Origin: Candidatus Undinarchaeota archaeon
GTDB taxonomy: Archaea; Undinarchaeota; Undinarchaeia; Undinarchaeales; UBA543
DNA: 64,000 nt
Reading direction: 5' to 3'
NCBI GenBank assembly: GCA_964636545.1
Contig: CAZWSR010000003.1
Span: 6,947-70,946 of the forward strand
Shown here: piece after piece, positions 31,857 through 59,418 of the stretch
Layout: every line of letters starts with the position of its first letter
How positions within the stretch are numbered: position 1 is the first letter of the stretch
Notes under the pieces: model-generated
Told to the model about the DNA's origin: nothing
Seen by the model: only the letters and a program-made list of their open reading frames with translations
The model's database searches: none
Translations under genes and position numbers: made by a program

Positions 31857-31923
31857 GGGGCTCCGGGGCGCAGGGGCTCAGTAGATCCGTACGGCGCTCC
31901 GGCTCCACGGATTCACGGCTCCC
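31857..31923. repeat. GC-rich octamer hairpin between the divergent eno and psmB promoters
   Basis: ggggctcc ggggcgca ggggctca gtagatccgta cggcgctc cggctcca cggattca cggctccc. Confidence 0.88.
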
Positions 31924-32018
31924 ATTATCAAATTTAACCAATAATAAAACTTATAAACCCAACAATCAACACTTAACCAAGCAATTTTAAGAGTTTTAAA
32001 ACTTTAAAGGTGAGAATA

Positions 32019-32654
32019 TTGGAAAAAAAAGATATGGAAAAATATTTGAAAGGGACAACCACTGTTGGTTTTACATGCACTGACGGTGTCGTAATGGCTT
32101 CTGATAGCAGAGCAACAATGGGCTTCATGATAGCTGACAAAAATGCCCGAAAAATATATGCAATTGATGACAAGATCGCAATCACAACAGCTGGAATGGT
32201 TGGCGACAACCAAATGCTTGTTCGATTAATGAAAGCACAACTTGCGCTTTACAAAATGGATGGAAAACCAATAACAGTAAAGGCAGCAACCACATTACTT
32301 TCAAATGTACTGCACCAAAATCGCTTTTACCCAATGTATGTACAGAACATAATTGGCGGATTTGATACAAAAGGAAGAATATTTGAATTGGATATGGCAG
32401 GCGGAATGGGTGAGAAAGATATATCATCCACAGGATCCGGCTCCCCAACAGCATACGGTGTTCTTGAAAATGATTGGAAAAAAGGAATGACTGTAGACGA
32501 AGGTGTTCACCTTGGTGTAAAATGTATCCACACTGCTTTGGAACGAGATGCAGCAACAGGAAACAATGTTCGCGTAATGAAAATAACTGCAAACGGAGTT
32601 GAAGAAGTTTCAAAAGAAACAATTGCACAAATAAGAACTGAGTTAGCAAAATAA
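32019..32654 (+). CDS. psmB: Proteasome beta subunit
   Basis: Propeptide followed by KG|TTTVG, ASDSRAT and GSGS. Start at TTG 32019 (GGTGA SD) or ATG 32034. Confidence 0.95.
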   Translation: MEKKDMEKYLKGTTTVGFTCTDGVVMASDSRATMGFMIADKNARKIYAIDDKIAITTAGMVGDNQMLVRLMKAQLALYKMDGKPITVKAATTLLSNVLHQNRFYPMYVQNIIGGFDTKGRIFELDMAGGMGEKDISSTGSGSPTAYGVLENDWKKGMTVDEGVHLGVKCIHTALERDAATGNNVRVMKITANGVEEVSKETIAQIRTELAK

Positions 32655-32657
32655 AGA

Positions 32658-32722
32658 ATCGTTTTTAGTCTTTCGTTATTCGTTTTTAGTAAACGAACAA
32701 CGAGAAACCAATAACGAATAAC
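32658..32722. repeat. AT-rich heptamer hairpin between psmB and fttA
   Basis: atcgttt ttagtct ttcgtta ttcgttt ttagta aacgaac aacgaga aaccaat aacgaat. Confidence 0.8.
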
Positions 32723-32763
32723 AAGATAATAATCACGTTTTCAAAATTTAGGAGAATAATATA

Positions 32764-34674
32764 ATGACAGTATTTCTTGACGAAATTCAGGAGAATATCC
32801 CAAAACCAGCACAAGTAGAGAAAGTGCAGCTAGAGGGATCTAAAATTGTAATTTATGCAAAAAAACTAGATTACTTTAGTGCAAATCCAGAAATTGTCAA
32901 AAACATTGTTGGAAAATACAAAAAGCGCGTTGATGTACGAGCAGATGTTACTGTTCTAACAGATGTTGAAAAAGCTAAAAAAACAATAATGGATATTGTT
33001 CCAAAAGAAGCAGAAATCACAGAAATTATTTTCATGAGCGATGTGAGTCGAGTTATAATTGAAGCAAAGAAACCAGGGCTTGTTATTGGAAAAGCAGGAA
33101 CAACATTGCGAGAAATCAAAAAAGAGATAAAATGGTCTCCACGTGTTGAGCGAACTCCCGTGATTCCATCAAAAATCATACAAACAATAAGGCATGTTCT
33201 TTATACTGGTGGAGCAGACAGATCAAAATTCCTAGCATCACTTGGAAGAAAAGTCAGGCCGAAAACAATTGGACCAGATGGAGATGAAGGTGACAAGTGG
33301 ATTAGAGTAACATCACTTGGAGGTTTCAGAGAAGTTGGCCGCAGTGCAGTGCTTTTGCAAACACAGGACAGCAAAGTTTTGATGGATTGTGGAGTTAATG
33401 TAGCAGCGCACGGCTCAAATGCATTCCCATATTTGAATGCCCCAGAATTTGATTTGAAAACACTGGATGCAATTGTTGTAACCCACGCCCACCTTGACCA
33501 CTCAGGATTTATTCCATATTTGTACAAGTACGGTTATGACGGACCGGTTTACTGCACACCAGGAACACGGGACTTAATGACCTTGCTACAGCTTGATTAT
33601 GTTGATATTGCACAGCGAGAAGGAAAGAAAATCCCTTACTCTAAAAAAGAAATTCAAGAAGTTATCAAACACACAATAACATTAGATTATGAAGAAGTTA
33701 CTGACATAACACAGGACTGCAGACTTACACTTTATCCAGCAGGACACATTCTTGGATCTTCAATGGCACACATACATATTGGTGAGGGGCTTCATAATAT
33801 TATTTACACTGGAGATATTAAATTTGAAAACACTAACCTACTTCAGGGAGCAGCAAGCAATTTCCCTCGTCTTGAAACATTGATTATGGAGAGTACATAC
33901 GGTGGAAAGAATGACATGCAAGCTCCACGACAAGATGCAGAGACAAAACTTGCCGATGTTTTAAAAGAAACAATTGCAAGGAAAGGAAAAGTTTTGATTC
34001 CAGTTCTTGCTGTTGGACGTGCACAGGAAGTTATGATTGTTCTTGAAAGACTTGCTCGACAGAAAAAAGTTGGAGACTTCAATATTTATCTAGATGGCAT
34101 GATTTGGGATGCAACAGCAATCCACACAGCTTATCCAGAATACTTATCACGAAACCTAAGACAACAGATATTCCACGATGACAAGAATCCGTTTATGTCT
34201 GGAGTTTTCAAGAGAGTTGGCGGAAAGAAAGAACGTGAGGAATTAATAGAGCATGGAGATCCTTGTGTAATTTTGGCAACATCTGGTATGCTTGCTGGCG
34301 GTCCGTCAGTTGAGTATTTCAGACGCTTTGCTGAAAGTGCAAAGAATTCTATTGTATTTGTGTCATATCAGGCAGAAGGCTCACTTGGAAAAAGGATACA
34401 GAAAGGTTTCAAGCAAATTACACTGGAAAACGGAAAAGGGCAGAATGAAATTGTTAATATGAAAATGCCTGTTCACACAATTGATGGTTTCTCAGGTCAC
34501 AGTGACCGAAGATCTTTAATGAATTTTGTTGGAAAACTGAATCCAAAACCAGACAGAGTGCTGGTAAATCACGGAGATAATATGAAATGTTTGGATTTAG
34601 CAAGTTCTTTGCATAAGGCCTACAAGGTTGACACTTATGCTCCAAAGAATTTAGAGACAATTAGGTTGCGGTAA
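32764..34674 (+). CDS. fttA: aCPSF1/FttA beta-CASP ribonuclease with KH domains (transcription termination factor)
   Basis: KPGLVIGKAG KH motif, LGGFREVGRS, THAHLDH, AGHILGS and FSGHSD. Confidence 0.95.
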   Translation: MTVFLDEIQENIPKPAQVEKVQLEGSKIVIYAKKLDYFSANPEIVKNIVGKYKKRVDVRADVTVLTDVEKAKKTIMDIVPKEAEITEIIFMSDVSRVIIEAKKPGLVIGKAGTTLREIKKEIKWSPRVERTPVIPSKIIQTIRHVLYTGGADRSKFLASLGRKVRPKTIGPDGDEGDKWIRVTSLGGFREVGRSAVLLQTQDSKVLMDCGVNVAAHGSNAFPYLNAPEFDLKTLDAIVVTHAHLDHSGFIPYLYKYGYDGPVYCTPGTRDLMTLLQLDYVDIAQREGKKIPYSKKEIQEVIKHTITLDYEEVTDITQDCRLTLYPAGHILGSSMAHIHIGEGLHNIIYTGDIKFENTNLLQGAASNFPRLETLIMESTYGGKNDMQAPRQDAETKLADVLKETIARKGKVLIPVLAVGRAQEVMIVLERLARQKKVGDFNIYLDGMIWDATAIHTAYPEYLSRNLRQQIFHDDKNPFMSGVFKRVGGKKEREELIEHGDPCVILATSGMLAGGPSVEYFRRFAESAKNSIVFVSYQAEGSLGKRIQKGFKQITLENGKGQNEIVNMKMPVHTIDGFSGHSDRRSLMNFVGKLNPKPDRVLVNHGDNMKCLDLASSLHKAYKVDTYAPKNLETIRLR

Positions 34675-34718
34675 AAGCTCACCGCTAACCCCTAATTCCC
34701 GAAAAATTTAATCCAATT

Positions 34719-35162
34719 TTAAGCTAATGGATTTGTTTCTGCTGGCTCTTCAGGTAGTGGACTCAAATCAGATGGCCCAACACTAACAGGTTCCATTCCA
34801 GCTCGTGCAATTCTGACACTTGGAGGTGTAATAACAATTATATCCTCTTTAATGCCTGCAATATCGCCGCCAATGGCTGAAGTTGTTCGCTGAATACGCT
34901 TCAAAGCTCGTTTTAGTTCCATTTTCTCTTGAACTAAAGAAGGCTTGACCTTAAGCACAACAACATTAGAACGGTCACGAAGATGTGCAAGGATACCCTC
35001 TACATCAGTGAACTCGTTTAGTGAAAGAACACGCAAAACATGTGCAGAATCTGCTTTTCCACCTTTCCAGTCTAGCTCGAGATACTTTGGCTCGCGCGAA
35101 ACATGAGTAGGTGCTCTGGCGCCTACACTTGGTTTAAGTATTTTATCTAGTAATCTCCTCAT
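34719..35162 (-). CDS. sepF: Archaeal SepF (DUF552)
   Basis: ELKRALKRIQ...GGDIAGIKEDIIVITP pattern. Confidence 0.85.
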   Translation of the reverse strand: MRRLLDKILKPSVGARAPTHVSREPKYLELDWKGGKADSAHVLRVLSLNEFTDVEGILAHLRDRSNVVVLKVKPSLVQEKMELKRALKRIQRTTSAIGGDIAGIKEDIIVITPPSVRIARAGMEPVSVGPSDLSPLPEEPAETNPLA

Positions 35163-35227
35163 TATAACTCCCCTCGGACTTAATGTGTTAGCGTGTTTGT
35201 TTATATATTTTTCTCCAGTGAACTATG

Positions 35228-35494
35228 TCACTTCTTGTTATTACCACTTAATGACTCAACCATGCTCAATGCTTGGTAAATGAACGTTCTTGTGCTCATA
35301 TCAATGTTTGAGTCACCTGCCATATCCTCAAGATGCTGGAGTGCCTTGTTCTTTCTAGCCTCAATTGAATCGCCATTGTCCTGCAGAACTTTTGAAACTG
35401 TTTCAGCTCGTGTACGGACATTTTGTGGAAGATAAGTATCCTCCGAAAGCTCAGACAAATTCTCAACAATCTGATTTAGAACAGAAACACTCAT
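35228..35494 (-). CDS. UPF0147 family protein
   Basis: LSEDTYLPQNVR...DSNIDMSTRTFIYQALS pattern. Confidence 0.85.
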   Translation of the reverse strand: MSVSVLNQIVENLSELSEDTYLPQNVRTRAETVSKVLQDNGDSIEARKNKALQHLEDMAGDSNIDMSTRTFIYQALSMVESLSGNNKK

Positions 35495-36471
35495 TTTGAA
35501 ACGCGCTCCTTGATTATTTGAACTGCTTTTTCCAATGCTGCATCGATATTTTGTGTGTTCTTGCCATTAACACCAGCAGCATTTGGATGACCGCTTCCAG
35601 TTCCTTCAATAATTTTAGATAGCTCTGGAGCAATATCTGTTCCTAAGTTTATCCCAGTTGCATCTGAAAATGAACTTTTAGATCGCATACTTATCCGAAC
35701 TTCCTTGTCCTTGTGAGCAGCTGCGATTGCAACATCAGCTCCGCTTCTTAAAAGAGCGCGGGCAGTTGCTGCTTCAAATGTTCCAACAACTGTTGTAACA
35801 ACTAAAAACTCAGAAACGCGAGTTGTCTGAAGACGTTGCATTCCTTTTAGAACAGCGATTCTCTCAGAAACATCAGGAACTAGTGAAAGAGTTTCCATTA
35901 TTTCTTTTGGCTCAATATTGTGCTCTTTCATCAAAGTAGTAATCATCTCAAAAGTTGAAACCTTTGCAAATCGGAAGTGAGCAGTGTCAGTCACCATTCC
36001 AAGAATAAGAGCAAGAGCTGTTTTTCGATTAAGCTCATAACCAAGAAGAGGCACTAGCTTGTAAACAAGCTCAGTTGTGCTAACTGCATTTACATCAACG
36101 ATTTTTTCATCAGCAGTTATTGATTCGCCTTGGATTGCATGATGATCAATAACAACTCGTGGGATTTTTGAATTTAAAACAGTATTAGAGTAAGAAGACA
36201 ATTGTCCCGGAGTTGAAGTATCAACTAAAATAACAAGATCGCAATCTAGTGGTGGGCTTTTAACAAACTCAGCACCTAGGCTAGACATTACTTTTTTGGA
36301 AAGCTTGCTGATACTTTCTGCAAAACCGATAACAGTCTCGCAACCCAAACTTTTCAGTGCTTCTGAAAGAACATAAGCGGACCCAACTGCGTCAGGATCA
36401 GCATTATGATGTCCAATAATAACTACTTTTTTTCCAGAATACTGTTTGAGAAAATCAGCGATTTTTTCCAT
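35491..36471 (-). CDS. DHH/DHHA1 family phosphoesterase
   Basis: HHNADPDA, LVDT, IDHH, TDT and GSGHPNAAG. Confidence 0.92.
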   Translation of the reverse strand: MEKIADFLKQYSGKKVVIIGHHNADPDAVGSAYVLSEALKSLGCETVIGFAESISKLSKKVMSSLGAEFVKSPPLDCDLVILVDTSTPGQLSSYSNTVLNSKIPRVVIDHHAIQGESITADEKIVDVNAVSTTELVYKLVPLLGYELNRKTALALILGMVTDTAHFRFAKVSTFEMITTLMKEHNIEPKEIMETLSLVPDVSERIAVLKGMQRLQTTRVSEFLVVTTVVGTFEAATARALLRSGADVAIAAAHKDKEVRISMRSKSSFSDATGINLGTDIAPELSKIIEGTGSGHPNAAGVNGKNTQNIDAALEKAVQIIKERVSK

Positions 36472-36475
36472 TATC

Positions 36476-36844: not shown

Positions 36845-36930
36845 TTTTGTTTATCCTCTTGGTTAAGGTTTCAGCCCTCGGCCATCAGCCATCAGTTCCT
36901 GAGGGCTGACTGCTGACTGCTGATACCTGT
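36845..36930 (-). repeat. CAGGTAT/TCAGC-family heptamer hairpin between pcc1 and pfdB
   Basis: Minus strand acaggtatcagcagtcagcagtcagccctcaggaactgatggctgatggccgagggctgaaaccttaaccaagagga; near-identical to 51929-52013. Confidence 0.9.
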
Positions 36931-37146: not shown

Positions 37147-37147
37147 T

Positions 37148-37576: not shown

Positions 37577-37666
37577 CTTTTGTTTTTCCTTTTGGTTAAG
37601 GTGTCAGCCCTCTGCCCTCTGCCTTCAGGTCCTGAAGGCTGAATGCTGACTGCTGATACCTGTTTA
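37577..37666 (-). repeat. CAGGTAT/TCAGC-family heptamer hairpin between rrp42 and rpl37ae
   Basis: Core gccttcagg-t-cctgaaggc at 37620-37638; ends ccttaaccaaagga...ATG. Confidence 0.9.
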
Positions 37667-39192: not shown

Positions 39193-39193
39193 T

Positions 39194-40093: not shown

Positions 40094-40109
40094 TTTTTAT
40101 TTTTCTCCT

Positions 40110-43177: not shown

Positions 43178-43246
43178 CTCGTTTTTAGTTTTTGGTTCTT
43201 CGTTTTTCGTTACCAATAACTAATTACTAATAACGAAAGACGAATT
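43178..43246. repeat. AT-rich heptamer hairpin in the rpl15e leader
   Basis: ctcgttt ttagttt ttggttc ttcgttt ttcgtta ccaat aactaat tactaat aacgaaa gacgaat; same family as 32658-32722. Confidence 0.8.
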
Positions 43247-43780: not shown

Positions 43781-43812
43781 GACCTACTACCTCCTACCTA
43801 CTACCCACTACC
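43781..43812. repeat. GGTAGTA-family heptamer arm immediately downstream of the rhomboid gene
   Basis: tactacc tcctacc tactacc cactacc. Confidence 0.8.
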
Positions 43813-43838
43813 TTATTAAAAAACTCCGCCTAATAACT

Positions 43839-44465
43839 TTACATCCACTTCTTTTCCCATTGGTCAAATGACTCTCCGCTAATTTCAATATCGTTTTTTC
43901 TATTGTGTTTTACTTCCTTGAATTTCTTATAGAAATAAATTCCAAAACCAATTCCAATAAACAATCCAGCAAGATGAGCGGCATTCGCTGTCCCACTTGG
44001 CACAAACAATCCTATAAAATCACCGAAAGCCCAGAATGCTGCAGCAACTGCCATTGGCATTGGAAAACCAGTAACCCATACGGTCATTTTTGGCCTGAGA
44101 ATTGCAAGTGCACCTAGGATTCCGAAAATTGCCCCAGAAGCTCCGAGAACTGCGCCGTAAAAAGGAATGGAAATAAATGCAGATGCTAGCCCTGCAGCAG
44201 CGTATAGTATAAGAAAATTTTTACTGCCTATAACTTTTTCTAGTATGGGACCGAAGATTAGAAGCGCGAACATATTATAAAGTAAATGTGAAAAACCGCC
44301 ATGCATGAACGCATGTGTCACAATTGTCCAAGGCCGGAAGACTGCATAATCAGAGACCAGTACAAAATAATTTTGGAGATCTCCAATAATAAATTGTATT
44401 ACAAAAACTCCCATACAGATTAGAGCAATGCGTATTGACCACCAAGAGGATTTTTTTTTAATCAT
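43839..44465 (-). CDS. Rhomboid intramembrane serine protease
   Basis: RPWTIVTHAFMHGGFSHLLYNM, GASG and AHLAG; ATGA overlap with the upstream gene. Confidence 0.93.
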   Translation of the reverse strand: MIKKKSSWWSIRIALICMGVFVIQFIIGDLQNYFVLVSDYAVFRPWTIVTHAFMHGGFSHLLYNMFALLIFGPILEKVIGSKNFLILYAAAGLASAFISIPFYGAVLGASGAIFGILGALAILRPKMTVWVTGFPMPMAVAAAFWAFGDFIGLFVPSGTANAAHLAGLFIGIGFGIYFYKKFKEVKHNRKNDIEISGESFDQWEKKWM

Positions 44466-45109
44466 ATTATGAACCACATAACAATTGAAACTGCAAGAGG
44501 AATTGTGAAATTATCATCAAGTCGGATTGGGAGAGACTCAACAATCATTCCGACAACCGCGGCAATGATTGCTAATGGAAGTGAAGTAATAATTAAACAA
44601 GCAATAAACGATGTCAAGAGACCAGCTATAGAACCTTCCCATGTTTTTTGTCGATTAAAGGAAATTTTGTGTTTTCCAAAATGTACTCCGATTAATGTAG
44701 AAAAAGAATCACCAACAGCTAACACAAGCATTGCTATTCTGAAAACAGCAGGTCCGAAAACAAGCAGGGAAATAAAACCACTGAAAAAAATAGTTGTGAT
44801 CCCAATATAAATTCCAAGTCGGCGCTCTTCAGCTCTGGCAAAACTATGGCAATAATCAAGAACTCTTTTGAGAAAACCTAATCTGTGTGAAAGTGGACGG
44901 AAAAAGCACAATGTAGAGCCAACAACAAATCCTAGAATTAAAAATAATAAAAGAAATACTTTTGGAATAAAATAGCTTGCAATCACCATTATCATTCCAA
45001 ATAAGTGAAAGAGCTGTCGTTTAAATTCCAAAGTCATGGCCAGAAATTGAATCAGTGAGTTTAAATAAATTATTATTGCAAAAATAGCGATAACTATAAA
45101 AGCCACCAA
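44462..45109 (-). CDS. Dolichol/phytol kinase-like CTP-dependent lipid kinase (SEC59/DGK1 family)
   Basis: RQLFH, GDSFSTLIG...KTWEGS and DDNFTIP. Confidence 0.85.
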   Translation of the reverse strand: MVAFIVIAIFAIIIYLNSLIQFLAMTLEFKRQLFHLFGMIMVIASYFIPKVFLLLFLILGFVVGSTLCFFRPLSHRLGFLKRVLDYCHSFARAEERRLGIYIGITTIFFSGFISLLVFGPAVFRIAMLVLAVGDSFSTLIGVHFGKHKISFNRQKTWEGSIAGLLTSFIACLIITSLPLAIIAAVVGMIVESLPIRLDDNFTIPLAVSIVMWFII

Positions 45110-45127: not shown

Positions 45128-46165
45128 GTGAGGCTAGACGAAAAGATTTTAGATTATATTAAGAGAACTGGACCATGCACTCCGATTGAGGTAGCGCAGC
45201 GTGTTGGTTCTGATTCCTTGATTGTTGCAGCAGTTTTAGTTGATGCAGTTAGCCAGAAGAAAATAAAACGCTCAAAAAGAAAAGCTGGTGGAAGCCATCG
45301 TTATTATTACTATCAAGAACAACTTTCAATGCTCCAGAAAAGAATCAACAGCGTCCTGACACCGCAGGACAAAGAGATGGTGCAGAAAATTCTGGACAAG
45401 AAAATGTTCAGTGAATTAGAAGTAGAACCGCAAGAAGTCAGCATACTTTCAGGTCTAGAAGACCTTATCACAGGATTTACATTTGAATATGACAATCACC
45501 TTATACGAGGATGGTGCGCACCAAATATTCCTGAAGAAAAAGCTCGAGAAGATGTTTTGAAAAAATTGCAGAAGAAATTACAAAAAGAGGCTGCAAAAGA
45601 AGAAGCCGCAAAAGAAGAAGAAGCTCCAGCTCCTAAACAAGAAGAACCTAAAGCTGCAGAACCTGAAGAACCTAAAAAAAAACCTCAACCAGAAGAAAAA
45701 AAGGAAAAAGAGCAAGAAAAGCCAACAAGCCAAAGCAAAGAAAGTCCAAAAAAAGAAAAAAAGGACGAGGAAAGTAAGGAAGACATCAAAGAGCAAATAA
45801 GAAAAGAAGTTCTGGCAGAAGTTAAGGGAAGTTTTGTTGATAATATTATACAAGCACTTGAAAAGCAAGAAATCGATCTCACAGACCAGCGAGTTGTGAA
45901 AAAAGACAAGGAATATGAAATGATAATTTCTGTTCCAACAAAACTAGGCATAACCCAGAGATATCTTGTAAGAATTTTTGACCATGGCAAGAAAAAGATT
46001 GGTTCAAAAGACATTTTCAGTTTAGGAATGGATGCGATTTCAAGAAAGATTCCTGCAATAGCAGTAAGCTCAACAGGATTTGCAAAAACCGCTATTAAGA
46101 AATGGAAAGAAGAATTGCAAGACATGATGCTGCTGATGACTGAGGACGATTTATCGGACATTTAA
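45128..46165 (+). CDS. Hypothetical protein: N-terminal winged helix, charged linker and a C-terminal Mrr/restriction-endonuclease-like fold (tentative)
   Basis: ILDYIKRTGPCTPIEVAQRVG; K/E-rich linker; C-terminal IAVSSTGFAKTA. Confidence 0.6.
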   Translation: MRLDEKILDYIKRTGPCTPIEVAQRVGSDSLIVAAVLVDAVSQKKIKRSKRKAGGSHRYYYYQEQLSMLQKRINSVLTPQDKEMVQKILDKKMFSELEVEPQEVSILSGLEDLITGFTFEYDNHLIRGWCAPNIPEEKAREDVLKKLQKKLQKEAAKEEAAKEEEAPAPKQEEPKAAEPEEPKKKPQPEEKKEKEQEKPTSQSKESPKKEKKDEESKEDIKEQIRKEVLAEVKGSFVDNIIQALEKQEIDLTDQRVVKKDKEYEMIISVPTKLGITQRYLVRIFDHGKKKIGSKDIFSLGMDAISRKIPAIAVSSTGFAKTAIKKWKEELQDMMLLMTEDDLSDI

Positions 46166-46919: not shown

Positions 46920-46980
46920 AATTTAGATTTTAGAATTTGGAATTTAGAATCAATTCTAAACCCCAAAATCAAAACTCCAA
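46920..46980. repeat. AT-rich heptamer hairpin downstream of the DUF2085 gene
   Basis: aatttag attttag aatttgg aatttag aatcaatt ctaaacc ccaaaat caaaact. Confidence 0.7.
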
Positions 46981-49806: not shown

Positions 49807-50576
49807 TTACAGTTGTCTTAATTGAACCACATTATTCTGGGAATATTGGCTCAGTTTGCAGAGCTATGAAGAATTTTGGATTTAGTAAATTGGAATTTGT
49901 TAATCCAAAAAAGATTACAGCTGAAGCTGGGATGATGGCTGTTCATGCAAAAGATGTTCTGGAAAAAGCAAAAACAGTAACTAAGTTTGATTTTAAGAAA
50001 TATGATTATGTAATTGGAACAAGTTGCAAAGCAACAGAAAAGGATGATTATTTTTTGAGAATGACAACGCCACTGAAAGAGTTGAAAAAGAAATTTGGGG
50101 CACCGGGGCGCGGGGGCGCCGCTGGACAGAAACGGCGCTCCGGATCCACGGCGCTCCGGCCAACTGGAAAGATAGCAATTGTGTTTGGTCCAGAACCTTC
50201 TGGCTTGTCAAATGAATTTCTTGAGAAATGTGATATCATCACAACAATCCCAACTTCTCCAAAATACAGAAGCATGAATTTGTCACACGCTGTTGCAGTA
50301 GTGCTGTACGAACTTGCAGGTAGTGGGCAGGGGGCAGTGAGCAGTGGGGCAACAGTGCGATTAGCAAATTCAAAGGAGAAATCACTAATCAATACCAATA
50401 TGAAAAGTATTGTTAAGAAAAGTGGTTATCCTGCTGAAAAACACAAAGTATTTAACAGCATGTTCCAGAAGCTCCTAGGGAGAGCAGTAGTAACTGGGAG
50501 AGAAGCAAACACATTAATAGGCGTTCTCAAACGTATAAAGAAGGCAACAGGCGTCAGGGATCAGGCATCAGGATAA
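49803..50576 (+). CDS. trmJ: TrmJ/TrmH-family SPOUT tRNA methyltransferase carrying repeat-derived in-frame insertions
   Basis: VLIEPHYSGNIGSVCRAMKNFG, VFGPEPSGLSNE and SMNLSHAV; ATGA overlap with suhB. Confidence 0.92.
   Translation: MITVVLIEPHYSGNIGSVCRAMKNFGFSKLEFVNPKKITAEAGMMAVHAKDVLEKAKTVTKFDFKKYDYVIGTSCKATEKDDYFLRMTTPLKELKKKFGAPGRGGAAGQKRRSGSTALRPTGKIAIVFGPEPSGLSNEFLEKCDIITTIPTSPKYRSMNLSHAVAVVLYELAGSGQGAVSSGATVRLANSKEKSLINTNMKSIVKKSGYPAEKHKVFNSMFQKLLGRAVVTGREANTLIGVLKRIKKATGVRDQASG
50097..50164. repeat. GC-rich octamer hairpin, in-frame inside trmJ (GAPGRGGAAGQKRRSGSTALRPT)
   Basis: ggggcacc ggggcgcg ggggcgcc gctggacagaaa cggcgctc cggatcca cggcgctc cggccaac. Confidence 0.9.
50319..50346. 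repeat. GGTAGTA-family heptamer arm, in-frame in the trmJ linker (GSGQGAVSS)
   Basis: ggtagtg ggcaggg ggcagtg agcagtg. Confidence 0.8.
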
Positions 50577-50616
50577 CAAAACCTGATACCAGAAACCCGA
50601 TACCTGATACCTGTAA
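50548..50616 (+). repeat. CAGGTAT-family heptamer hairpin encoding the trmJ C-terminus and stop
   Basis: caggcgt cagggat caggcat caggata acaaaa cctgata ccagaaa cccgata cctgata cctgtaa. Confidence 0.88.
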
Positions 50617-50635
50617 AAAAGAGGTAAATAAAAAA

Positions 50636-51928: not shown

Positions 51929-52013
51929 GAGGCATCAGGTGTCAGCAGTCAGCCATCAGGACCTGATGGCTGAAGGCCGAGGGCTGAAACCTTAACCAAG
52001 AGGACAAATAAAA
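51929..52013 (+). repeat. CAGGTAT/TCAGC-family heptamer hairpin upstream of uL16
   Basis: Perfect 12-bp arms tcagccatcagg-a-cctgatggctga at 51949-51973; ends ccttaaccaagagga...ATG. Confidence 0.9.
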
Positions 52014-52544: not shown

Positions 52545-52590
52545 AGCAGATTTCTAAAAGAATTTATACTAAAAAGTTAAAGGAATAGCC

Positions 52591-53451: not shown

Positions 53452-53518
53452 ATAACTGAAACTCACATTACCCACTATTTATTTAAACCCGCGATTACTA
53501 CTGCGATTAAGATAAAAC

Positions 53519-56266
53519 ATGGATTATATTGTATGGTTCAAAGATTTGAATAAAAAAAGCATCAGCGTAGCTGGAGGTAAAGGAGCAAACCTTGGTGAGC
53601 TGACTGCTGCTGGAATGCCAGTGCCTGAAGGTTTTATTTTAACTGCACAAACCTACAAGAAATTTATTGACGAGGCAGATCTGAATGAAGACATAAACGA
53701 AATTCTAAAGGACTTGGATGTTGAGGATAATGACAAACTGCAGAAGGCATCAAAAGATATTGGAAGTATGATAACTGGTTCTCCAATGCCAGATGAAGTG
53801 CAGGAAGCAATCAAAACCGAGTATGAAAAAATTGAATCAACTGATAATATTATAATTGCAGGAACAGGGCAAGAACCAGGAGAATTTGTTGCAGTGCGCT
53901 CTTCAGCAACTGCAGAGGACCTGCCAGGCGCAAGTTTCGCAGGCCAACAAGCAACTTTCTTGAATGTGAAAGGTGGAACCAACCTAATCCACGCAGTAAA
54001 AGAGTGCTGGGCTTCATTGTTTACAGCAAGAGCAATTTATTATCGTGTGAAAAAAGGTTTTGAGCATGAGAAAGTTCTGATTTCAGTTATTGTTCAGAAA
54101 ATGATTGACTCAGACAAGTCAGGAGTTATGTTTACTGTAAATCCAGTTGATAATGACCGCTCAAAAATTTCAATTGACTCTGCTTGGGGACTTGGAGAAG
54201 CAATTGTTGGCGGACAAGTTACTCCAGATCACTTCCTTGTTGATAAAGAAACACAAGAAATTACAGAAAGTAAAGTTTCTAAAAAGGACTTCATGTACAC
54301 CCGAGATATTGCAGAAGGAAACACAACAAAAGTGACTTTGACTGACGAAACCGCGAATAAGAGCTCAGTTACTGATGAGGAAGTTAAAACTCTTGCTGAG
54401 TTTGGGAAGAAGATTGAGGCGCATTATGATTATCCACAAGATATTGAATGGGCAATTGATAGTGGTGAATTTTTCATTTTGCAATCAAGGCCAGTTACGA
54501 CTTTAGGGGATGAAGATGGAAAGGCAGTAGGTAGTGGGCAGAAGGCAGTAGCTGAAAAACCTCAAACCACTGCACCAACAGGCGATGTTTTAGTAAAAGG
54601 TTTTGGCGCAAGCCCAGGAATTGGCGGCGGAAAAGTGAAGATTGTTCACGATGCTAGTGAATTAACAAAAGTTGAAAAAGGAAATGTGCTTGTTGCTAAA
54701 ATGACTAGCCCAGATATGGTTCCAGCAATGGAAAGAGCAAGTGCAATTGTCACAAATGAAGGTGGAGTAACTTGTCATGCTGCAATTGTTTCACGAGAAC
54801 TTGGAATACCATGTATTGTTGGAAGTGAAAATGCAACTGAAGTTTTGAAAGATGATCAAGAAGTCACAGTTGATGCAAAAGCAGGAGTTGTTTACCCTGG
54901 AATAAAAGCAAATGCAAGCACAGAACCAATAAAACTTGAAACAGCTGACAAAATCCCAACAAAAACAAAGATTTATGTTAATTTAGGAATTCCAAGCAAG
55001 GCAAAAGAGGTTGCTGCACTGCCAGTTGACGGTGTTGGTTTGATGCGAGAAGAATTTTTAATTGCTTCGCAGATTGGTGAGCACCCACTTGCAATGATTG
55101 AACGTGGAGCATCGCAGGAGTTTATTGACAAATTAGCTGACGGAATTCAGCAAGTTGCTGAAGCATTTAATCCACGACCAGTTGTTCTGCGACTAAGTGA
55201 TTTGAAAACAAATGAGTACCATGACTTGAAAGGTGGAGATAAATTTGAAGATCCTGAAGATAATCCAATGATTGGATGGCGCGGATGCTCAAGATACACT
55301 TCTGACAAATACAAAGAGGCATTCAAGCTTGAATTGAAAGCTGTGAAGAAGGTGCGTGATGCTGGTTTCAAGAATATTGTAATAATGTTACCGTTTGTTA
55401 GAAAACTTGATGATGTTACACGAGTTACAGAACTGATGAAAGAAGAAGGACTTGAGCGCGGCGAGGACTTGAAATTATGGATAATGGCAGAAGTTCCTTC
55501 AGTTGTTATTCTTGCTGACGAATTTGCAAAACTTGTTGATGGATTTTCAATTGGCAGTAATGATTTAACTCAATTGACAATGGGAGCAGACCGCGATTCT
55601 GAATTGCTTGAGAAACTTGGTTATTTTGATGAGCGAGATGAAGCAGTTATGCGATCAATTGCACGTTTGATAAAATTAGGAAATAATGCAGGAATTACTG
55701 TTTCAATTTGCGGACAAGCACCTAGCACAAAGCCAGAGATTATCAAAGTTTTAGTTGAGAAAGGAATTACTTCAATAAGTGCAAATCCAGATGTTGCTGT
55801 GCAGACAATGAAAATGGTTGCTCAGGAAGAGAGTAAGATTACTTTAGCTAAGGATGAAATTGAATCAGGGGCTCCGGGGCGCAGTGAAACCGGGGCGACG
55901 GAGCGGAGTATAGACGTAGAGACGAAAACAGAACCTCAAACTCCAAACCCACAACCCCAAACCACTGAACCAATTGAAATACAAACTCCAAGCCATGTAG
56001 AACCGAAACCACCTAGCGCACCAGCCCCTATGCCACCTAAAGAAGAATCAGAGAAAAAGCAAGAGAACCTACCCCATTTTTCACCTCCAGCACAACTTCC
56101 AAAAAAAGATGATGACGAAGACGACGAGGATGACGATGATAATGGATTTATTGAGAAAGTAGAAGATGTTGTTGAAGATATTGGAGATAAAGTTGAAGAA
56201 ATTGGAGAAAAAGTAACTGGATTTTTCAGGCATGATAAGGACGAGGAAGGGAAGGAAGAAGAATAG
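53519..56266 (+). CDS. ppsA: Phosphoenolpyruvate synthase with a long low-complexity C-terminal extension
   Basis: GGKGANLGEL, AVRSSATAEDLPGASFAGQQ, GGVTCHAAIVSRELG, NPMIGWRG and SIGSNDLTQ. Confidence 0.96.
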   Translation: MDYIVWFKDLNKKSISVAGGKGANLGELTAAGMPVPEGFILTAQTYKKFIDEADLNEDINEILKDLDVEDNDKLQKASKDIGSMITGSPMPDEVQEAIKTEYEKIESTDNIIIAGTGQEPGEFVAVRSSATAEDLPGASFAGQQATFLNVKGGTNLIHAVKECWASLFTARAIYYRVKKGFEHEKVLISVIVQKMIDSDKSGVMFTVNPVDNDRSKISIDSAWGLGEAIVGGQVTPDHFLVDKETQEITESKVSKKDFMYTRDIAEGNTTKVTLTDETANKSSVTDEEVKTLAEFGKKIEAHYDYPQDIEWAIDSGEFFILQSRPVTTLGDEDGKAVGSGQKAVAEKPQTTAPTGDVLVKGFGASPGIGGGKVKIVHDASELTKVEKGNVLVAKMTSPDMVPAMERASAIVTNEGGVTCHAAIVSRELGIPCIVGSENATEVLKDDQEVTVDAKAGVVYPGIKANASTEPIKLETADKIPTKTKIYVNLGIPSKAKEVAALPVDGVGLMREEFLIASQIGEHPLAMIERGASQEFIDKLADGIQQVAEAFNPRPVVLRLSDLKTNEYHDLKGGDKFEDPEDNPMIGWRGCSRYTSDKYKEAFKLELKAVKKVRDAGFKNIVIMLPFVRKLDDVTRVTELMKEEGLERGEDLKLWIMAEVPSVVILADEFAKLVDGFSIGSNDLTQLTMGADRDSELLEKLGYFDERDEAVMRSIARLIKLGNNAGITVSICGQAPSTKPEIIKVLVEKGITSISANPDVAVQTMKMVAQEESKITLAKDEIESGAPGRSETGATERSIDVETKTEPQTPNPQPQTTEPIEIQTPSHVEPKPPSAPAPMPPKEESEKKQENLPHFSPPAQLPKKDDDEDDEDDDDNGFIEKVEDVVEDIGDKVEEIGEKVTGFFRHDKDEEGKEEE
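54523..54550. repeat. GGTAGTA-family heptamer arm, in-frame in the ppsA inter-domain linker (KAVGSGQKAV)
   Basis: ggcagta ggtagtg ggcagaa ggcagta. Confidence 0.8.
55868..55907. repeat. GC-rich octamer arm, in-frame in the ppsA tail (GAPGRSETGATER)
   Basis: ggggctcc ggggcgca gtgaaacc ggggcgac ggagcgga. Confidence 0.8.
55934..55968. repeat. Heptamer arm, in-frame in the ppsA tail (PQTPNPQPQT)
   Basis: cctcaaa ctccaaa cccacaa ccccaaa ccactga. Confidence 0.65.
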
Positions 56267-56302
56267 CTAACATTTTTATACCATAACTTGAAGGAATTTA
56301 TT

Positions 56303-57286
56303 ATGCAAGACAAGATTTTACAAGCAGTTCAGGAAAAAGGAGCAAAGAAGATAGGACTGCAGGTTCCAGAAGGCCTGAAGAACAAGGCAGTTGAGTGGGC
56401 ACAAGAAATTGAGAAAACTGGAGCAAAAGTTTATATTTTCGCTGATCCATGCTATGGAGCTTGTGATTTATGGGATTTTGAAGCAGACCGACTTGGTTGC
56501 GATTTGCTAATTCATGTTGGGCATTCTACAATTGGAATTGAAGAAAAAATTCCAACAGTTTACATTGAATATGAATCTGACTTGGATATTTCAAAAATTG
56601 TTGAGAAAGCTGGACAGGAAATTGAAGAAAAAAAGATTGTATTAACCACTACACTGCAACACATCAAACAACTTGATAAAATTAAAGAAATTCTGGAAAA
56701 ATCTGGAAAAGAAGTTGTTATTGGAAAAGCAGGAACTCGTTCAAAATATGATGGACAGATTCTTGGATGCGACCCAGGAGTTATTGCTGATGCAGATGCA
56801 TATCTTTACATTGGTACTGGAAACTTCCACGCAATTGAAATTGCACTTGCAACAGGCAAAAAAGTTTACATTGCTGATCCTGAGCTTGACCAAATTAGGA
56901 TTTTAGATGATGAAAAAGAGGAATTCTTAAGAAAACGATTTGCAAAAATTGAGAATGTGAAGGGGGCGCCGGGGCGCCGGGGCGCCGGGGCTCAGAAGTT
57001 CGGTATTCTGGTCAGCATAAAACCAGGTCAGAACCGAATGGACTTGGCTGAAAAACTGAAAAAGATGTGTGAAGAGAAAGGAAAGCAAGCAGAAATTCTT
57101 GTGATGGACTACATTAGCCCAGAAAAACTACTTGGATTTGGATTTGATGCATATGTAAACACAGCTTGTCCGCGAATTGCTATTGATGATTCTGGAAATT
57201 ATGACAAGCCGCTACTAACTCCGCAGGAATTAGAGATTGTTCTGGGAATTAGAGAATGGGAAAAATATAAATTAGATAGATTCTAA
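56303..57286 (+). CDS. dph2: Diphthamide biosynthesis radical-SAM enzyme Dph2
   Basis: Three Fe-S cysteines in DPCYGACD, ILGCD and TACPR; LQVPEGLK. Confidence 0.94.
   Translation: MQDKILQAVQEKGAKKIGLQVPEGLKNKAVEWAQEIEKTGAKVYIFADPCYGACDLWDFEADRLGCDLLIHVGHSTIGIEEKIPTVYIEYESDLDISKIVEKAGQEIEEKKIVLTTTLQHIKQLDKIKEILEKSGKEVVIGKAGTRSKYDGQILGCDPGVIADADAYLYIGTGNFHAIEIALATGKKVYIADPELDQIRILDDEKEEFLRKRFAKIENVKGAPGRRGAGAQKFGILVSIKPGQNRMDLAEKLKKMCEEKGKQAEILVMDYISPEKLLGFGFDAYVNTACPRIAIDDSGNYDKPLLTPQELEIVLGIREWEKYKLDRF
56963..56994. repeat. GC-rich octamer array, in-frame in dph2 (GAPGRRGAGAQ)
   Basis: ggggcgcc x3 perfect, followed by ggggctca. Confidence 0.9.
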
Positions 57287-57295
57287 TAATAAGAT

Positions 57296-58000
57296 ATGAG
57301 TTTTGAAACTGAAAACGAAAAACTAAAACAGAATGAAGTTATTACATATGAAAGTAAGGTGAATATAAAGAATATTAAAGATGACTACGAGAAACTGATA
57401 ATCGATATTGGCGCAATTGGAGATATTGAAAAAGAAATCGGGTTTGGAAAAATACTTCTACCATGTGTTGAGCTGTCAAAGAACAAGAAATGGTTTGTAA
57501 CAGCTATTGATCTACCATTTATAACTGTAGAAGATATGATTACAGTTGAGGAATTCTGCGAAAATGATCTCCAAAAACTGAAGAGGAAGAATTTAGGTAT
57601 GAGAATTCTGGAAACAAATTACAAGACACTTCCGTTTGACACTTCAATTTTTGACAGGGTTGAGATGCATTATGTTCTTACAATTTGCGACAAAAACGCA
57701 AAGAATATTCTAAGTGAAGCTGACAGAGTCCTGAAACCAGGTGGAGTCATGATGATAAGTGGCGAGTATGGTTCACTAGTGAACTTGGATAGAAAGCAGA
57801 AAAAACTTCTACATAAGTTCATACAAAAGAAAAAATATACAAAAATAAAACCTGTGACAAAACAAGTGATGGTTAGTAACTTTGGTGAGGAGTTTGGAGA
57901 TGAGAAAGAACATCGTTTATACATGCTAAGAAAACCAGTTGAAAAAGATAAGAGAGGAATACTCAATAGTTTGAAAAAGTGGATAACTAATTGGATGTGA
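57296..58000 (+). CDS. Class I SAM-methyltransferase-like protein (divergent)
   Basis: LIIDIG and LPFDTSIFDRV...EADRVLKPGG. Confidence 0.65.
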   Translation: MSFETENEKLKQNEVITYESKVNIKNIKDDYEKLIIDIGAIGDIEKEIGFGKILLPCVELSKNKKWFVTAIDLPFITVEDMITVEEFCENDLQKLKRKNLGMRILETNYKTLPFDTSIFDRVEMHYVLTICDKNAKNILSEADRVLKPGGVMMISGEYGSLVNLDRKQKKLLHKFIQKKKYTKIKPVTKQVMVSNFGEEFGDEKEHRLYMLRKPVEKDKRGILNSLKKWITNWM

Positions 58001-58030
58001 AAATTATAAATTGGACCGATTTTAAGCCAA

Positions 58031-58062
58031 TTACCTACCACCCACTACCCACTACCTGAACC
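58031..58062. repeat. GGTAGTA-family heptamer arm upstream of the rpoL promoter
   Basis: ttacc taccacc cactacc cactacc. Confidence 0.78.
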
Positions 58063-58111
58063 AATTGGATAAACTTATAAACACCCAAAAACTCAGAATA
58101 GAGGTAATAAA

Positions 58112-58384
58112 ATGGAACTAAAAATTTTAAAAGATGAAAAAGACCTTCTTGAGGTTGAACTTGTTGGAGAAACACACACTCTAACAAATGTACTGAAAGA
58201 TATTTGTAATGAAGATAAGAGTATTGACAGTGCATCATACAGAGTGGATCACCCAATGACATCCAACCCAATTCTAGTTATTAGAACAAAAACAGGTTCA
58301 CCAAAAACTGCAGTGAAGAAAGCAGCAGCAGCACTAGAAAAAATCGCAGCTGACTTTGGAAGCAAGTTCAAAAAATCTATATAA
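58112..58384 (+). CDS. rpoL: RNA polymerase subunit L (Rpo11)
   Basis: GETHTLTNVL and SYRVDHP. Confidence 0.94.
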   Translation: MELKILKDEKDLLEVELVGETHTLTNVLKDICNEDKSIDSASYRVDHPMTSNPILVIRTKTGSPKTAVKKAAAALEKIAADFGSKFKKSI

Positions 58385-58424
58385 ACTGTAATAACTAATT
58401 CTTACAAAGCTGGGGAAGATTATT

Positions 58425-58952
58425 TTGAAAATAAAACTTAGCAAAAAGACAAAGAGCTTTTTAGAAACGCTTGCATATATTTTCATAGGTTACCTAATCG
58501 CTGTTGGAGCAAACAAAGGAATGTCAATGGCAATGCACACAGACTACCCAGTTGTTGCTGTTGTTTCAAGTAGTATGGAACATGACGATCCCATTAGTTA
58601 TGAAACATGGTTTATTGATAGAAAATATGATGAGGCAGATAGAGAAGAATGGGATTTTGGAAGAGGAATCAACAAAGGAGATATAGTTTTTGTTAATGGG
58701 GTTCCATTAGAAGAGATTGGTAGCGGAGATGTAATAGTTTACAAATCAGGCAATATGGAGCCGATAATCCATAGAGTTATTGAAGTCACAGATGATGGAT
58801 TAAGAACAAAAGGTGACAATAACATGGATGTTGATCAGGATGATAGTATTCCAATTGTAACACAAGGGGCTTTGCAAGGAAGAGCAGTTTTCCGAGTTCC
58901 AATGTTAGGTTATGTTAAAATCGCGTTTATGAAAATTACAGGGAGGAGCTAG
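58425..58952 (+). CDS. sec11: Signal peptidase I (Sec11 type)
   Basis: TM helix, VVSSSME (Ser), IIHRV (His), TKGDNN and PMLGYVK; TTG start. Confidence 0.9.
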   Translation: MKIKLSKKTKSFLETLAYIFIGYLIAVGANKGMSMAMHTDYPVVAVVSSSMEHDDPISYETWFIDRKYDEADREEWDFGRGINKGDIVFVNGVPLEEIGSGDVIVYKSGNMEPIIHRVIEVTDDGLRTKGDNNMDVDQDDSIPIVTQGALQGRAVFRVPMLGYVKIAFMKITGRS

Positions 58953-58954
58953 AA

Positions 58955-59035
58955 CAGGTGTCAGGTAACAGGGATCAGGGTTCAGGATAACAGTTCCTGA
59001 TACCCGATGCCCGAACCCCGATACCTTTAACCAAA
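58955..59035 (+). repeat. CAGGTAT-family heptamer hairpin between sec11 and tfs
   Basis: caggtgt caggtaa cagggat cagggtt caggata acagtt cctgata cccgatg cccgaac cccgata cctttaa ccaaa-ATG. Confidence 0.9.
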
Positions 59036-59362
59036 ATGCAATTCTGTCCAAAATGTGGTGCAATGATGCAACCGCGTGAAAAAAAAGGAACTGATGACAT
59101 GGAGCTTGTCTGCCCAAAGTGCAAATATGTTGAAGGCGCTGATGAAGATGCTCACACAAGCACAGAAGTTCAGGAGAAAGTTGAAGAAGTTGCAGTTATT
59201 GATGAAAACTCAGTTGCACTGCCAAAAACCGATAATGAGTGCCAGAAATGCCACAATAAGAAAGCGTACTGGTGGCTTGAGCAAACAAGATCTGCTGACG
59301 AAGCACCTACTAGATTTTACAGATGCACAAAGTGCGGAAATACTTGGCGGGAATATAGTTAG
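59036..59362 (+). CDS. tfs: Transcription factor S (TFS/RpoM)
   Basis: FCPKCG...CPKC, CQKC...QTRSADE...CTKCG. Confidence 0.95.
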   Translation: MQFCPKCGAMMQPREKKGTDDMELVCPKCKYVEGADEDAHTSTEVQEKVEEVAVIDENSVALPKTDNECQKCHNKKAYWWLEQTRSADEAPTRFYRCTKCGNTWREYS

Positions 59363-59366
59363 TTCC

Positions 59367-59418
59367 GTGAATCCGGGGCTCCGCAGGGCCGTACGGCGCT
59401 CCGGCTCCACGAATTCAC
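59367..59418. repeat. GC-rich octamer hairpin directly after the tfs stop
   Basis: 59389-59418 matches 31887-31916 at 29 of 30 nt (ccgtacggcgctccggctccacgRattcac). Confidence 0.88.

Follow-up and report, generated by a model that had tools for sequence, protein, structure and literature searches.

Short GC-rich octamer repeats between and within genes of a marine Undinarchaeales archaeon

The window and its octamer elements

We analyzed a 64,000-nucleotide stretch (hereafter, the window) of contig CAZWSR010000003.1 from a Candidatus Undinarchaeota archaeon (assembly GCA_964636545.1), in which units of a short GC-rich octamer recur both between and within genes. The genes of the window are archaeal housekeeping genes (among others, those for enolase, the proteasome, exosome subunits, Dph2, TFS, and PCNA). 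The GC content is ~38%, and the GC skew follows gene strand. Exact window proteins also occur in the NCBI metagenome-assembled genome (MAG) GCA_030751255.1 and in several JGI metagenomes, and they were matched exactly in seawater and hydrothermal-vent metagenome runs. Homologs come from sources named “Candidatus Undinarchaeales archaeon,” and relatives carry a fused PriS-PriL primase. The host is a small marine DPANN archaeon of the Undinarchaeales. The comparisons below cover this ~64 kb and roughly 150 kb of relatives; L127, L128, L129, and L155–L162 are labels for loci of related lineages that were compared with the window, and X1 is a metagenome run that holds the genome at ~12x depth.

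An earlier, sequence-only reading of this DNA had described a family of GC-rich octamers with left arms of the type GGGGCKCM and right arms of the type CGGCKCYC. The family is real. GGGGCKCM occurs 14 times in the window (2.07 expected) and CGGCKCYC 13 times (0.92 expected, the observed count including some sites that are the reverse complement of left-arm matches), and none of 100 shuffles reached either count. The more general unit GGNGCNCC occurs 19 times (3.4 expected), and arrays with at least three in-register units number six, versus 0.02 in shuffles. A scan for GC islands (stretches of ≥75% GC) led to six family loci, E1 to E6 (Table 1), and Tandem Repeats Finder (TRF) reported a period of 8 at E6, E1, E3, and E5. 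Two unit types stand in register: type (a) is GGNGCNCC, with the variants GGGGCTCC, GGGGCGCC, GGGGCACC, GGCGCTCC, GGAGCCCC, and GGTGCCCC, and type (b) is GTGRANCC (GTGAATCC, GTGGAGCC, GTGAAACC) or its complement GGNTYCAC (GGATTCAC, GGCTCCAC, GGATCCAC). Because GGNGCNCC is its own reverse complement, the “left” and “right” arms of the sequence-only reading are one unit with different free positions. Five copies (E1, E2, E3, and two in L160) are two-armed, and a core 9-mer just after the loop, CGGCGCTCC, is invariant in all five. Four of the six window copies are intragenic.

The octamer elements are identical in JGI, in NCBI GCA_030751255.1, and in Logan contigs of four runs; given the same sequence in independent assemblies, they are not an assembly artifact. 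Members of the family were found in the window, L127, L155/L158, L160/L162, and L161, and none in ~77 kb of L128, L159, L129, L156, and L157, so far as these sequences go a restriction to one clade. Rfam has no family for the elements, either at the gathering threshold or at E≤1, and its subthreshold matches are only miRNA-like ones to a single AT-rich hairpin. A genome-contig collection scanned with CGGCGCTCCGGMTCCACG gave chance matches only, in high-GC bacteria. Metagenome contigs gave no match to the 25-mer common to E1 and E2, in a collection without the organism's own samples, and 23 matches to the 18-mer GGAGCCCCGGATTCACGG, all on unrelated contigs of 53–74% GC. Two viral-contig scans returned nothing relevant and no sign of a virus carrying the elements.

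Table 1. Repeat elements of the window and of related loci, with other features mentioned in the text (window positions unless a related locus is named)
Feature	Position	Strand	Units or sequence	Context
E6, octamer array	15484..15515	-	GGTGCCCC GGCTCCAC GGCGCCCC GGCTTTAC (+ strand reading)	inside conserved 226-aa ORF; encodes PGRRGAGA
E1, two-armed octamer element	31857..31923	+	GGGGCTCC GGGGCGCA GGGGCTCA GTAGATCC GTAC GGCGCTCC GGCTCCAC GGATTCAC GGCTCCC	intergenic, between divergent enolase and proteasome-beta promoters
E3, two-armed octamer element	50097..50164	+	GGGGCACC GGGGCGCG GGGGCGCC, loop, C GGCGCTCC GGATCCAC GGCGCTCC GGCCAAC	in TrmJ/SpoU methylase gene
E4, single-armed octamer element	55868..55923	+	GGGGCTCC GGGGCGCA GTGAAACC GGGGCGAC GGAGCGGA GTATAGAC GTAGAGAC	C-terminal tail of PpsA
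E5, octamer array	56963..56994	+	(GGGGCGCC)x3 then GGGGCTCA	in Dph2; 24-nt in-frame insertion
E2, 60-nt imperfect palindrome centered on CCGTACGG	59363..59422	+	GTGAATCC GGGGCTCC GCAGGGCC GTAC GGCGCTCC GGCTCCAC GAATTCAC	starts 1 nt past TFS stop codon, upstream of next promoter
Period-7 array, heptamer-unit hairpin	30523..30576			S2/enolase junction
Period-7 array, heptamer-unit hairpin	37599..37661			L37ae/Rrp42 junction
Period-7 array, heptamer-unit hairpin	50548..50613		GGNNTCA / TGANNCC	3' end of TrmJ; z -4.9 plus strand, -8.4 minus strand
Period-7 array, heptamer-unit hairpin	51930..51992			between DUF1512 gene and L10e, then CCTTAACCAAGAGG and start codon; z -5.6 and -6.8
Period-7 array, heptamer-unit hairpin	58954..59026			between S24-like gene and TFS
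Other period-7 arrays	15408-15440, 16099-16132, 26106-26171, 29421-29445, 32657-32740, 36866-36928, 43199-43244, 43782-43813, 46923-46980, 58032-58056
Heptamer array	50320..50351	+	GGTAGT GGGCAGG GGGCAGT GAGCAGT GGGG	inside TrmJ
Unit-family hairpins of relatives	L155 11015-11170, 15782-15813, 19646-19691, 20141-20170; L158 3100-3200, 8569-8654; L160 14745-14871
226-aa ORF, K/R-rich, conserved	15141..15821	-		overlaps HIT-family gene (14981..15382) by ~200-240 nt, in another frame
PpsA C-terminal extension, ~130 aa	55850-56266			Pro-rich, then strongly acidic
Promoter-like block	53470-53495; L127 5960-5985; L155 6165-6190		CACCCACTATTTATTTAAACCC	upstream of ppsA, conserved
ORFs of 208-499 aa with no Pfam match	7970-8596, 8597-9991, 11724-12920, 17226-17903, 44462-45109, 45128-46165, 61734-63233
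Putative toxin-antitoxin, small DUF7557 / ParE-toxin-like gene pair	~61166-61661			downstream of PCNA; annotated on the identical locus L121

Insertion into genes, copying between loci, and turnover at junctions

The coding copies behave as additions to otherwise ordinary genes. The sequence-only reading had counted four of them, and four there are, all in frame, with the qualification that E6, the copy in the 226-aa open reading frame (ORF), lies outside the interval 31857-59418 in which that reading placed the family. The recurrent peptides are as it described them: FGAPGRGG in TrmJ, SGAPGRSE in PpsA, KGAPGRRGAGAQ in Dph2, and KPGRRGAGAPK in the 226-aa ORF. In relatives, further coding copies occupy a linker of Rrp4 (L158) and the tail of L37ae (L161), and the same repeat thus stands in frame in unrelated conserved genes. 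The reading had also held that conservation of the peptides in distant orthologs would count against it; judged from the alignments, the coding copies are lineage-specific in-frame insertions rather than conserved peptides, and on this point it survives.

The clearest case is Dph2. The peptide GAPGRRGA (exactly eight residues, equivalent to 24 nt or three units) is absent from 12 of 12 aligned orthologs, which are 51–86% identical in the alignment (the closest is 83% identical by BLASTP); the 24 nt are lacking in orthologs of 64–83% identity, and the peptide falls in a gap against PDB 6q2d. At the DNA level, an ancestral AAA ACC GCTCAG has become AAG (GGGGCGCC)x3 GGG GCTCAG. In an AlphaFold (AF2) model with a mean predicted local distance difference test (pLDDT) score of 88, the insert is predicted to form a loop (residues 221–231) between a helix (202–220) and a strand (232–237), and the loop has the lowest pLDDT in the protein. 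In TrmJ, E3 is translated as GAPGRGGAAGQKRRSGSTALRPT, and homology to solved TrmJ structures splits around it. The insert adds 57 nt in the window and 24 nt in L127, with identical borders and in both cases replacing an ancestral KNKK; it is absent in L128, L155, and L157. The ancestral site, AAAAATAAGAAA, is AT-rich and has no seed octamer, and the L127 copy is read in the other orientation (GAPDSRRPGAP). E4, which encodes GAPGRSETGATERS..., has an orthologous insert in two relatives, with seven units in the window, four in L127, and three in L155 (the peptide is GAPGLR... in L127 and L155), and none in L128, L129, and L157. In the 226-aa ORF, PGRRGAGA takes the place of an equal-length stretch of a variable K-rich linker, which reads KKPSKPTT in a homolog that is 77% identical.

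All eight coding length changes are multiples of three (+24, +57, +57, 0, +24, +33, +21, and +15), no copy holds a stop codon, and the copies other than the Dph2 loop sit in low-complexity linkers or tails. Lengths always divisible by three, the lack of stops, and locations in loops or disordered linkers together argue that the coding copies are translated. We also considered that they might be spliced bulge-helix-bulge (BHB) introns, a reading that we rejected in view of the same lengths and the same lack of stop codons.

Some features of the genes concerned deserve mention in their own right. Where the 226-aa ORF overlaps the HIT-family gene (15141-15382, minus strand), its frame is open in all five homologs, and the C-terminal part of the ORF is the most conserved; this could be genuine dual coding, or conservation forced by the HIT frame. 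Ordinary PEP synthases lack the C-terminal extension of PpsA, which varies among relatives. Upstream of ppsA, the promoter-like block is preceded in L127 and L155 by heptamer arrays of the ACCTTCT type.

Multi-unit composites recur at unrelated loci. E1 (31888-31917) and E2 (59389-59418) are identical at 29 of 30 positions and, when the comparison is extended, at 39 of 44. The core of E3 matches a different locus on another X1 contig at 45 of 48 positions; that contig has low depth and an intergenic-looking flank that resembles the Memo/S2 junction. E3, which is coding, and an intergenic element in L160 (15622-15698) have a common architecture and the common blocks GGGGCACCGGGGC and TCCACGGCGCTCCGG (13 and 15 nt), the 18-mer GGAGCCCCGGATTCACGG is present in both E2 (as its reverse complement) and the TrmJ insert of L127, and (GGGGCGCC)n arrays occur in at least four other contigs of X1. 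The recent copying that had been proposed from E1 and E2 is thus upheld, and the E3 core extends it. Because such composites recur at unrelated loci and in different genomes, purely local slippage is insufficient to account for them. Slippage also occurs, as the different unit numbers at orthologous sites indicate.

The octamer elements have counterparts with a different period. Period-7 arrays (found with TRF) occupy many of the window's intergenic junctions, and many of the arrays are long imperfect hairpins with units such as GGNNTCA/TGANNCC. These heptamer hairpins are strongly structured (z from -3.4 to -8.4) and dominate the list of inverted repeats in the window, in which E2 ranks first. 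They follow directly on stop codons and precede the Shine-Dalgarno (SD) sequence (CCTTAACCAAGAGG...ATG) or promoter of the gene that comes next. For most of them the better fold is that of the strand antisense to the gene upstream, and no T-run follows them. The heptamer array inside TrmJ is a second lineage-specific in-frame insertion in that gene (+5 aa, GSGQGAVSSGA), and it has the 12-mer GGCAGGGGGCAG in common with the intergenic array at 29421-29445. Sister lineages L128/L159 and L157 lack the heptamer arrays of the window.

Comparison of syntenic junctions brings the two varieties together. After TFS, the window has E2, L155 has a GTAGAAG/CTTCTAC heptamer hairpin, and L128, L129, L156, and L157 have nothing. 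Between the enolase and proteasome genes, E1 of the window corresponds to another octamer element in L161, to a GGGGCTA/TAGCCCC hairpin in L160 and L162 (with the same right flank as in the window), and to no element in L158 and L159. The L37ae/Rrp42 junction has a heptamer hairpin in the window and an octamer element with the same left flank (CCTCTTGGTTAAGG) in L160, and the two genes lie 1 nt apart in L158 and L159. At S2/enolase, the window has a heptamer hairpin, L161 has an octamer array, and the genes are 1 nt apart in L159 and L160; at Memo/S2, a heptamer array in the window corresponds to an octamer hairpin in L160 and L162. Octamer and heptamer elements are, on this comparison of sequences, interchangeable and optional at syntenic junctions.

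Relatives also carry unit families of their own that form junction hairpins (e.g., GGAAGGT/ACCTTCC, GCTTTCGG, TTAGGCG/CGCCTAA, and GGGACNNN; Table 1). At the prefoldin/Pcc1 junction, the TTAGGCG family is common to L158 and L160, and the window has a hairpin of the ATCAGG type.

Folding, mechanism, and competing explanations

The sequence-only reading had further held that the arms pair well only if G:T wobble is allowed, which would imply a hairpin formed by single strands. The premise is overstated, given that Watson-Crick complementarity without wobble is already 71% in E1 (17-nt arms), 72% in E3 (25-nt arms), and 79% in E2 (34-nt arms, the longest inverted repeat of the window); by hand count, wobble adds just one or two pairs, about equally on either strand. 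The step from wobble arms to a single-stranded hairpin does not stand as it was argued and is weakly supported, so that the earlier interpretation is upheld in part, for the copying and the insertions. Compared with dinucleotide shuffles, the RNA folds of E1 and E3 have z-scores of -1.2 to -1.3 and -2.1 to -2.3, respectively, and for E2 the fold of the minus strand is the more stable one, at -34.9 kcal/mol (z -4.6 to -4.7) compared with -26.1 kcal/mol for the plus strand. For all five two-armed copies, a fraction of 0.44–0.91 of unit-order permutations folds at least as well as the real order. Orientation relative to transcription is mixed, with two copies sense (E2 and E3), two antisense (both in L160), and one (E1) between divergent genes. 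RNAalifold finds a consensus hairpin for the five copies with an unfavorable covariation term (+2.24), so the compensatory changes that the hairpin proposal invited one to look for do not emerge. Any array of GGNGCNCC units folds; because the unit is self-complementary and permuted orders fold equally well, foldability is mostly a by-product of the palindromic unit. It should be noted that the plus strand folds better in four of the five two-armed copies and that all five are co-oriented in the window and L160, a pattern that L161 breaks. The G·T of the stem is supplied by the core CGGCGCTCC in the window and L160; in L161 that T faces an A instead (GGAGCGCC with GGCGCTCC), which gives a perfect pair.

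In our view, the GC-rich octamers are probably a young, lineage-restricted family of short, non-autonomous, copied repeats in marine Undinarchaeales. With similar confidence, we take this family to be one sequence variety of a wider class, namely imperfect palindromes with periodic units of 7 or 8 nt at the gene junctions of one clade. The elements would spread by copying at the DNA level, either through hairpin- or microhomology-templated repair and gene conversion, at DNA prone to hairpins, or through a trans-acting enzyme encoded elsewhere, and the length of an element would then shift by unit slippage, with gain or loss of units. They would be tolerated only at “safe” sites, which may be the gap from a stop codon to the following promoter or SD sequence, the space between divergent promoters, or loops and tails of proteins. 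The ability to form hairpins would largely be a by-product of the palindromic unit, and any benefit of intercistronic copies (e.g., REP-like stabilization or processing of mRNA 3' ends) would be secondary.

Several observations weigh against a family of copied repeats. Subfamilies have few copies each, that of E1/E2 just two in X1. Within the population, assembled contigs of four runs, which hide rare variants, showed no indel, no difference in unit number, and no presence/absence polymorphism at E2–E5. Comparison of filled with empty sites showed no target-site duplication at Dph2, TrmJ, PpsA, E1, or E2, and the copies in TrmJ and the 226-aa ORF replace host sequence. No transposase, RAYT, Y1_Tnp, or IS200-like domain was found in the scanned proteins or the Pfam lists of the window and its relatives (some ORFs being unscanned); seven ORFs of the window have no Pfam match, and those of them also scanned against NCBIfam have no match there. 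No related autonomous insertion sequence (IS) with the element ends was seen in the loci examined. The TrmJ insert is present in the window and L127 and yet missing from L155, L127's sister, a pattern that recombination or a hot spot would have to explain. Finally, the invariant CGGCGCTCC, together with a G·T in the window and L160 versus an A-T in L161, hints that pairing, or a recognition site, is under some constraint, which a purely selfish model would not call for.

A more ambitious version, which we regard as doubtful, is that the clade harbors an undescribed self-propagating modular hairpin element, whose arms are arrays of 7- or 8-nt units with a fixed core and free positions and which a dedicated DNA-level machinery copies or overwrites in place at junctions. 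Candidate machinery would be a strand-specific single-stranded DNA transposase or nuclease for which CGGCGCTCC is the recognized core, or else a polymerase or primase that switches templates. The octamer variety would then also seed new Gly/Ala/Pro/Arg loops in essential proteins. If this were true, a DPANN archaeon with a reduced genome would have a new mobile-element mechanism, which would also be a source of protein innovation.

The observations that hint at constraint can also be turned into a different explanation, in which the elements are functional RNA hairpins, that is, intercistronic or 3'-end stem-loops that stabilize, process, or terminate transcripts in the manner of REP/BIME elements or terminator hairpins, the octamer family is one of several sequences that could serve this end, and the coding copies are accidental spill-over. 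Such a role would fit the stereotyped position right after stop codons and before the next SD sequence or promoter, the strong structure of the heptamer hairpins (z -3.4 to -8.4), the conserved core CGGCGCTCC with its change from G·T to A-T in L161, the preference for the plus strand in four of five two-armed copies, and the occurrence of different hairpins in different lineages at one junction, as if the site could need a hairpin. However, sister lineages manage without one, with genes 1 nt apart at the same junctions. Relative to transcription, the two-armed octamer copies are sense in the case of E2 and E3 and antisense in that of both L160 elements. The better fold of E2, and of most heptamer hairpins, is on the strand antisense to the gene upstream, and E1, with a promoter pointing away on either side, is at a place where one expects no 3' end. 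Considering also that there is no covariation, that permuted units fold equally well, and that no T-run follows the hairpins, we think an RNA function unlikely to be the explanation, as far as sequence alone can tell. We are more skeptical still of purely local growth, by which replication slippage would have expanded a chance GC-rich octamer at each site without any copying between loci. The arrays are indeed head-to-tail with period 8, their unit number varies by lineage (three, four, or seven in PpsA, and four versus seven plus a loop in TrmJ), and the last unit in Dph2, GGGGCTCAG, overlaps with GCTCAG of the ancestral sequence. Nevertheless, unrelated loci and genomes have composites in common (the 39/44 and 45/48 matches, the 18-mer, and CGGCGCTCC in 5/5 copies), ancestral sites such as AAAAATAAGAAA in TrmJ are AT-rich without a seed octamer, and the same two unit types alternate everywhere.

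Selection at the protein level is a very improbable account, despite the occurrence of the same peptide in three or four unrelated proteins. Under it, several proteins would have recruited GAPGR and PGRRGAGA as a functional linker or as a motif for modification or interaction, and one could point to the sense orientation of G-type units in four of four clearly independent coding events (PpsA, Dph2, the 226-aa ORF, and Rrp4 of L158) and to the retention of the PpsA insert in three lineages. Yet the same DNA is also noncoding (E1, E2, L160, L161), the peptides are absent from close orthologs, the reading phase varies between copies (e.g., E6 vs. E5), the TrmJ copy of L127 reads in the opposite orientation (GAPDSRRPGAP), and the Dph2 insert is a low-confidence loop in the model. 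We give next to no credence to the idea that the G-rich arms fold into G-quadruplexes and that these, as DNA or RNA structures, have a regulatory role or pause replication: although E5 (GGGGG CGCC GGGG CGCC GGGG CGCC GGGG) and L160 15622-15653 have four G-tracts with loops of 3–6 nt, most copies have two or three G-tracts (E1, E3, E4, and the PpsA copies) or are C-type arrays (E6, the TrmJ copy of L127, L161), and complementary C-containing units would favor a duplex or hairpin.

Relation to known repeats and significance

Our preferred explanation, a family of copied repeats, places the elements near several known systems without identity to any of them. Repetitive extragenic palindromic (REP) elements are the obvious comparison, and REP-like elements have been reported in archaea too (PMC3733652, PMC12306157). 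Like REP, BIME, and REPIN, the elements here are short imperfect palindromes of tens of nucleotides that are repeated, richer in GC than their surroundings, and variable between strains, and they lie mostly between genes of one transcription unit, just after stop codons. The arms (34, 25, and 17 nt in E2, E3, and E1, respectively) agree with the short palindromes (~20–40 nt) of REP/REPIN. However, a REP palindrome carries at one of its ends a conserved tetranucleotide, GTAG or CGTC (PMC3733652), and there is no such head here: elements end in GGGG..., GTGAATCC, or ...TTCAC, and the sole GTAG is internal, in E1. Unlike in REP, units of 8 nt (or 7 nt) in tandem make up the arms, and where REP is high-copy and essentially extragenic, the window has six loci in 64 kb, four of the six intragenic, and X1 has two copies of E1/E2. 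No RAYT, which would be expected of a REP/REPIN system, was seen in the scanned window proteins or the Pfam lists of ~150 kb of relatives.

The in-frame insertions recall the Rickettsia palindromic elements (RPEs; PMC10969869), which likewise enter unrelated conserved housekeeping genes in frame and leave them intact, add a peptide at surface or loop positions, and have intergenic copies as well. RPEs, however, are bacterial, ~100–150 bp long, and fall into families with a defined consensus, whereas the elements here are archaeal, modular, and 24–70 nt long; there is no sequence relationship, and the likeness is one of analogy. The GC clusters of yeast mitochondria (GC42; PMC4478555) are similar in being GC-rich hairpin mini-elements that are optional between relatives in an AT-rich compact genome. 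As with these clusters and with the hairpin elements that mitochondria of fungi and sponges carry (PMC7218506, PMC2800124), there are several classes that merge or shuffle and no known transposase. In GC42 the 42-nt sequence is fixed, the duplicated target is AG, and substitutions are biased toward the loop (PMC4478555). Here, in contrast, there is no target duplication, no stem bias or covariation is detectable with five copies, the units are periodic (not a GC42 feature), and the setting is not organellar. MITEs of bacteria and archaea (miniature inverted-repeat transposable elements; PMC10969869) are also short, noncoding, and repeated, with possible in-frame fusion with host ORFs. MITEs have inverted ends; of the present elements, E2 has GTGAATCC...GAATTCAC, as any palindrome would, and the single-armed E4, E5, and E6 have none. 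The present elements differ in having no target-site duplication and no related IS seen, in being far shorter, and in an interior of tandem units.

The heptamer arrays of the window have a parallel in the TAACTGA repeats of cyanobacteria and Beggiatoaceae (PMC4679880), which are likewise abundant period-7 repeats between genes and near start codons, are phylogenetically patchy, and have no known mechanism; nearly all of those repeat a single fixed heptamer directly, whereas the arrays here have inverted arms and a conserved core with variable positions. The head-to-tail period of 8 and the varying unit number (3, 4, and 7 for PpsA in L155, L127, and the window, respectively) are those of a slippage minisatellite, but the loci are not independent, as composites are common to loci and genomes. 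In archaea, the MJRE palindromic repeats of Methanocaldococcus jannaschii (Suyama et al., FEBS Lett, 2005) reportedly have a few copies in coding regions that keep the frame; they are not known to have unit periodicity and are reportedly old rather than recent. They resemble the present elements as archaeal palindromic repeats with some in-frame coding copies and differ in phylum and sequence.

By analogy, then, the elements resemble REP in position, RPEs in their in-frame insertion, and yeast GC clusters as optional GC-rich hairpins. They lack what defines the established groups, namely the head and extragenic habit of REP (most window copies are intragenic), the target-site duplication of MITEs, and the target duplication of GC42. 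Their unusual aspects are the modular architecture of 7/8-nt units and the in-place turnover between unit families. Literature searches turned up no account of such elements from Undinarchaeota or DPANN.

In genomes as tiny and streamlined as those of DPANN archaea, a recent bloom of repeats is unexpected. Gene junctions have been lengthened from ~1 nt to 60–100 nt, and essential genes have been entered (Dph2, TrmJ, PpsA, Rrp4, L37ae). The clade thus offers a natural experiment in which selfish or structural DNA invades compact genomes and proteins gain loops. With the syntenic series of empty, heptamer-filled, and octamer-filled junctions across close lineages, existing metagenomes allow a direct test of how elements are gained, lost, and replaced. 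For annotation, the elements account for odd GAPGR-type peptides and for C-terminal ORF extensions in these MAGs. A dedicated machinery, should there be one, would constitute a new mobile-element system of archaea, and hairpins that turned out to act on RNA would be the archaeal equivalent of REP elements.

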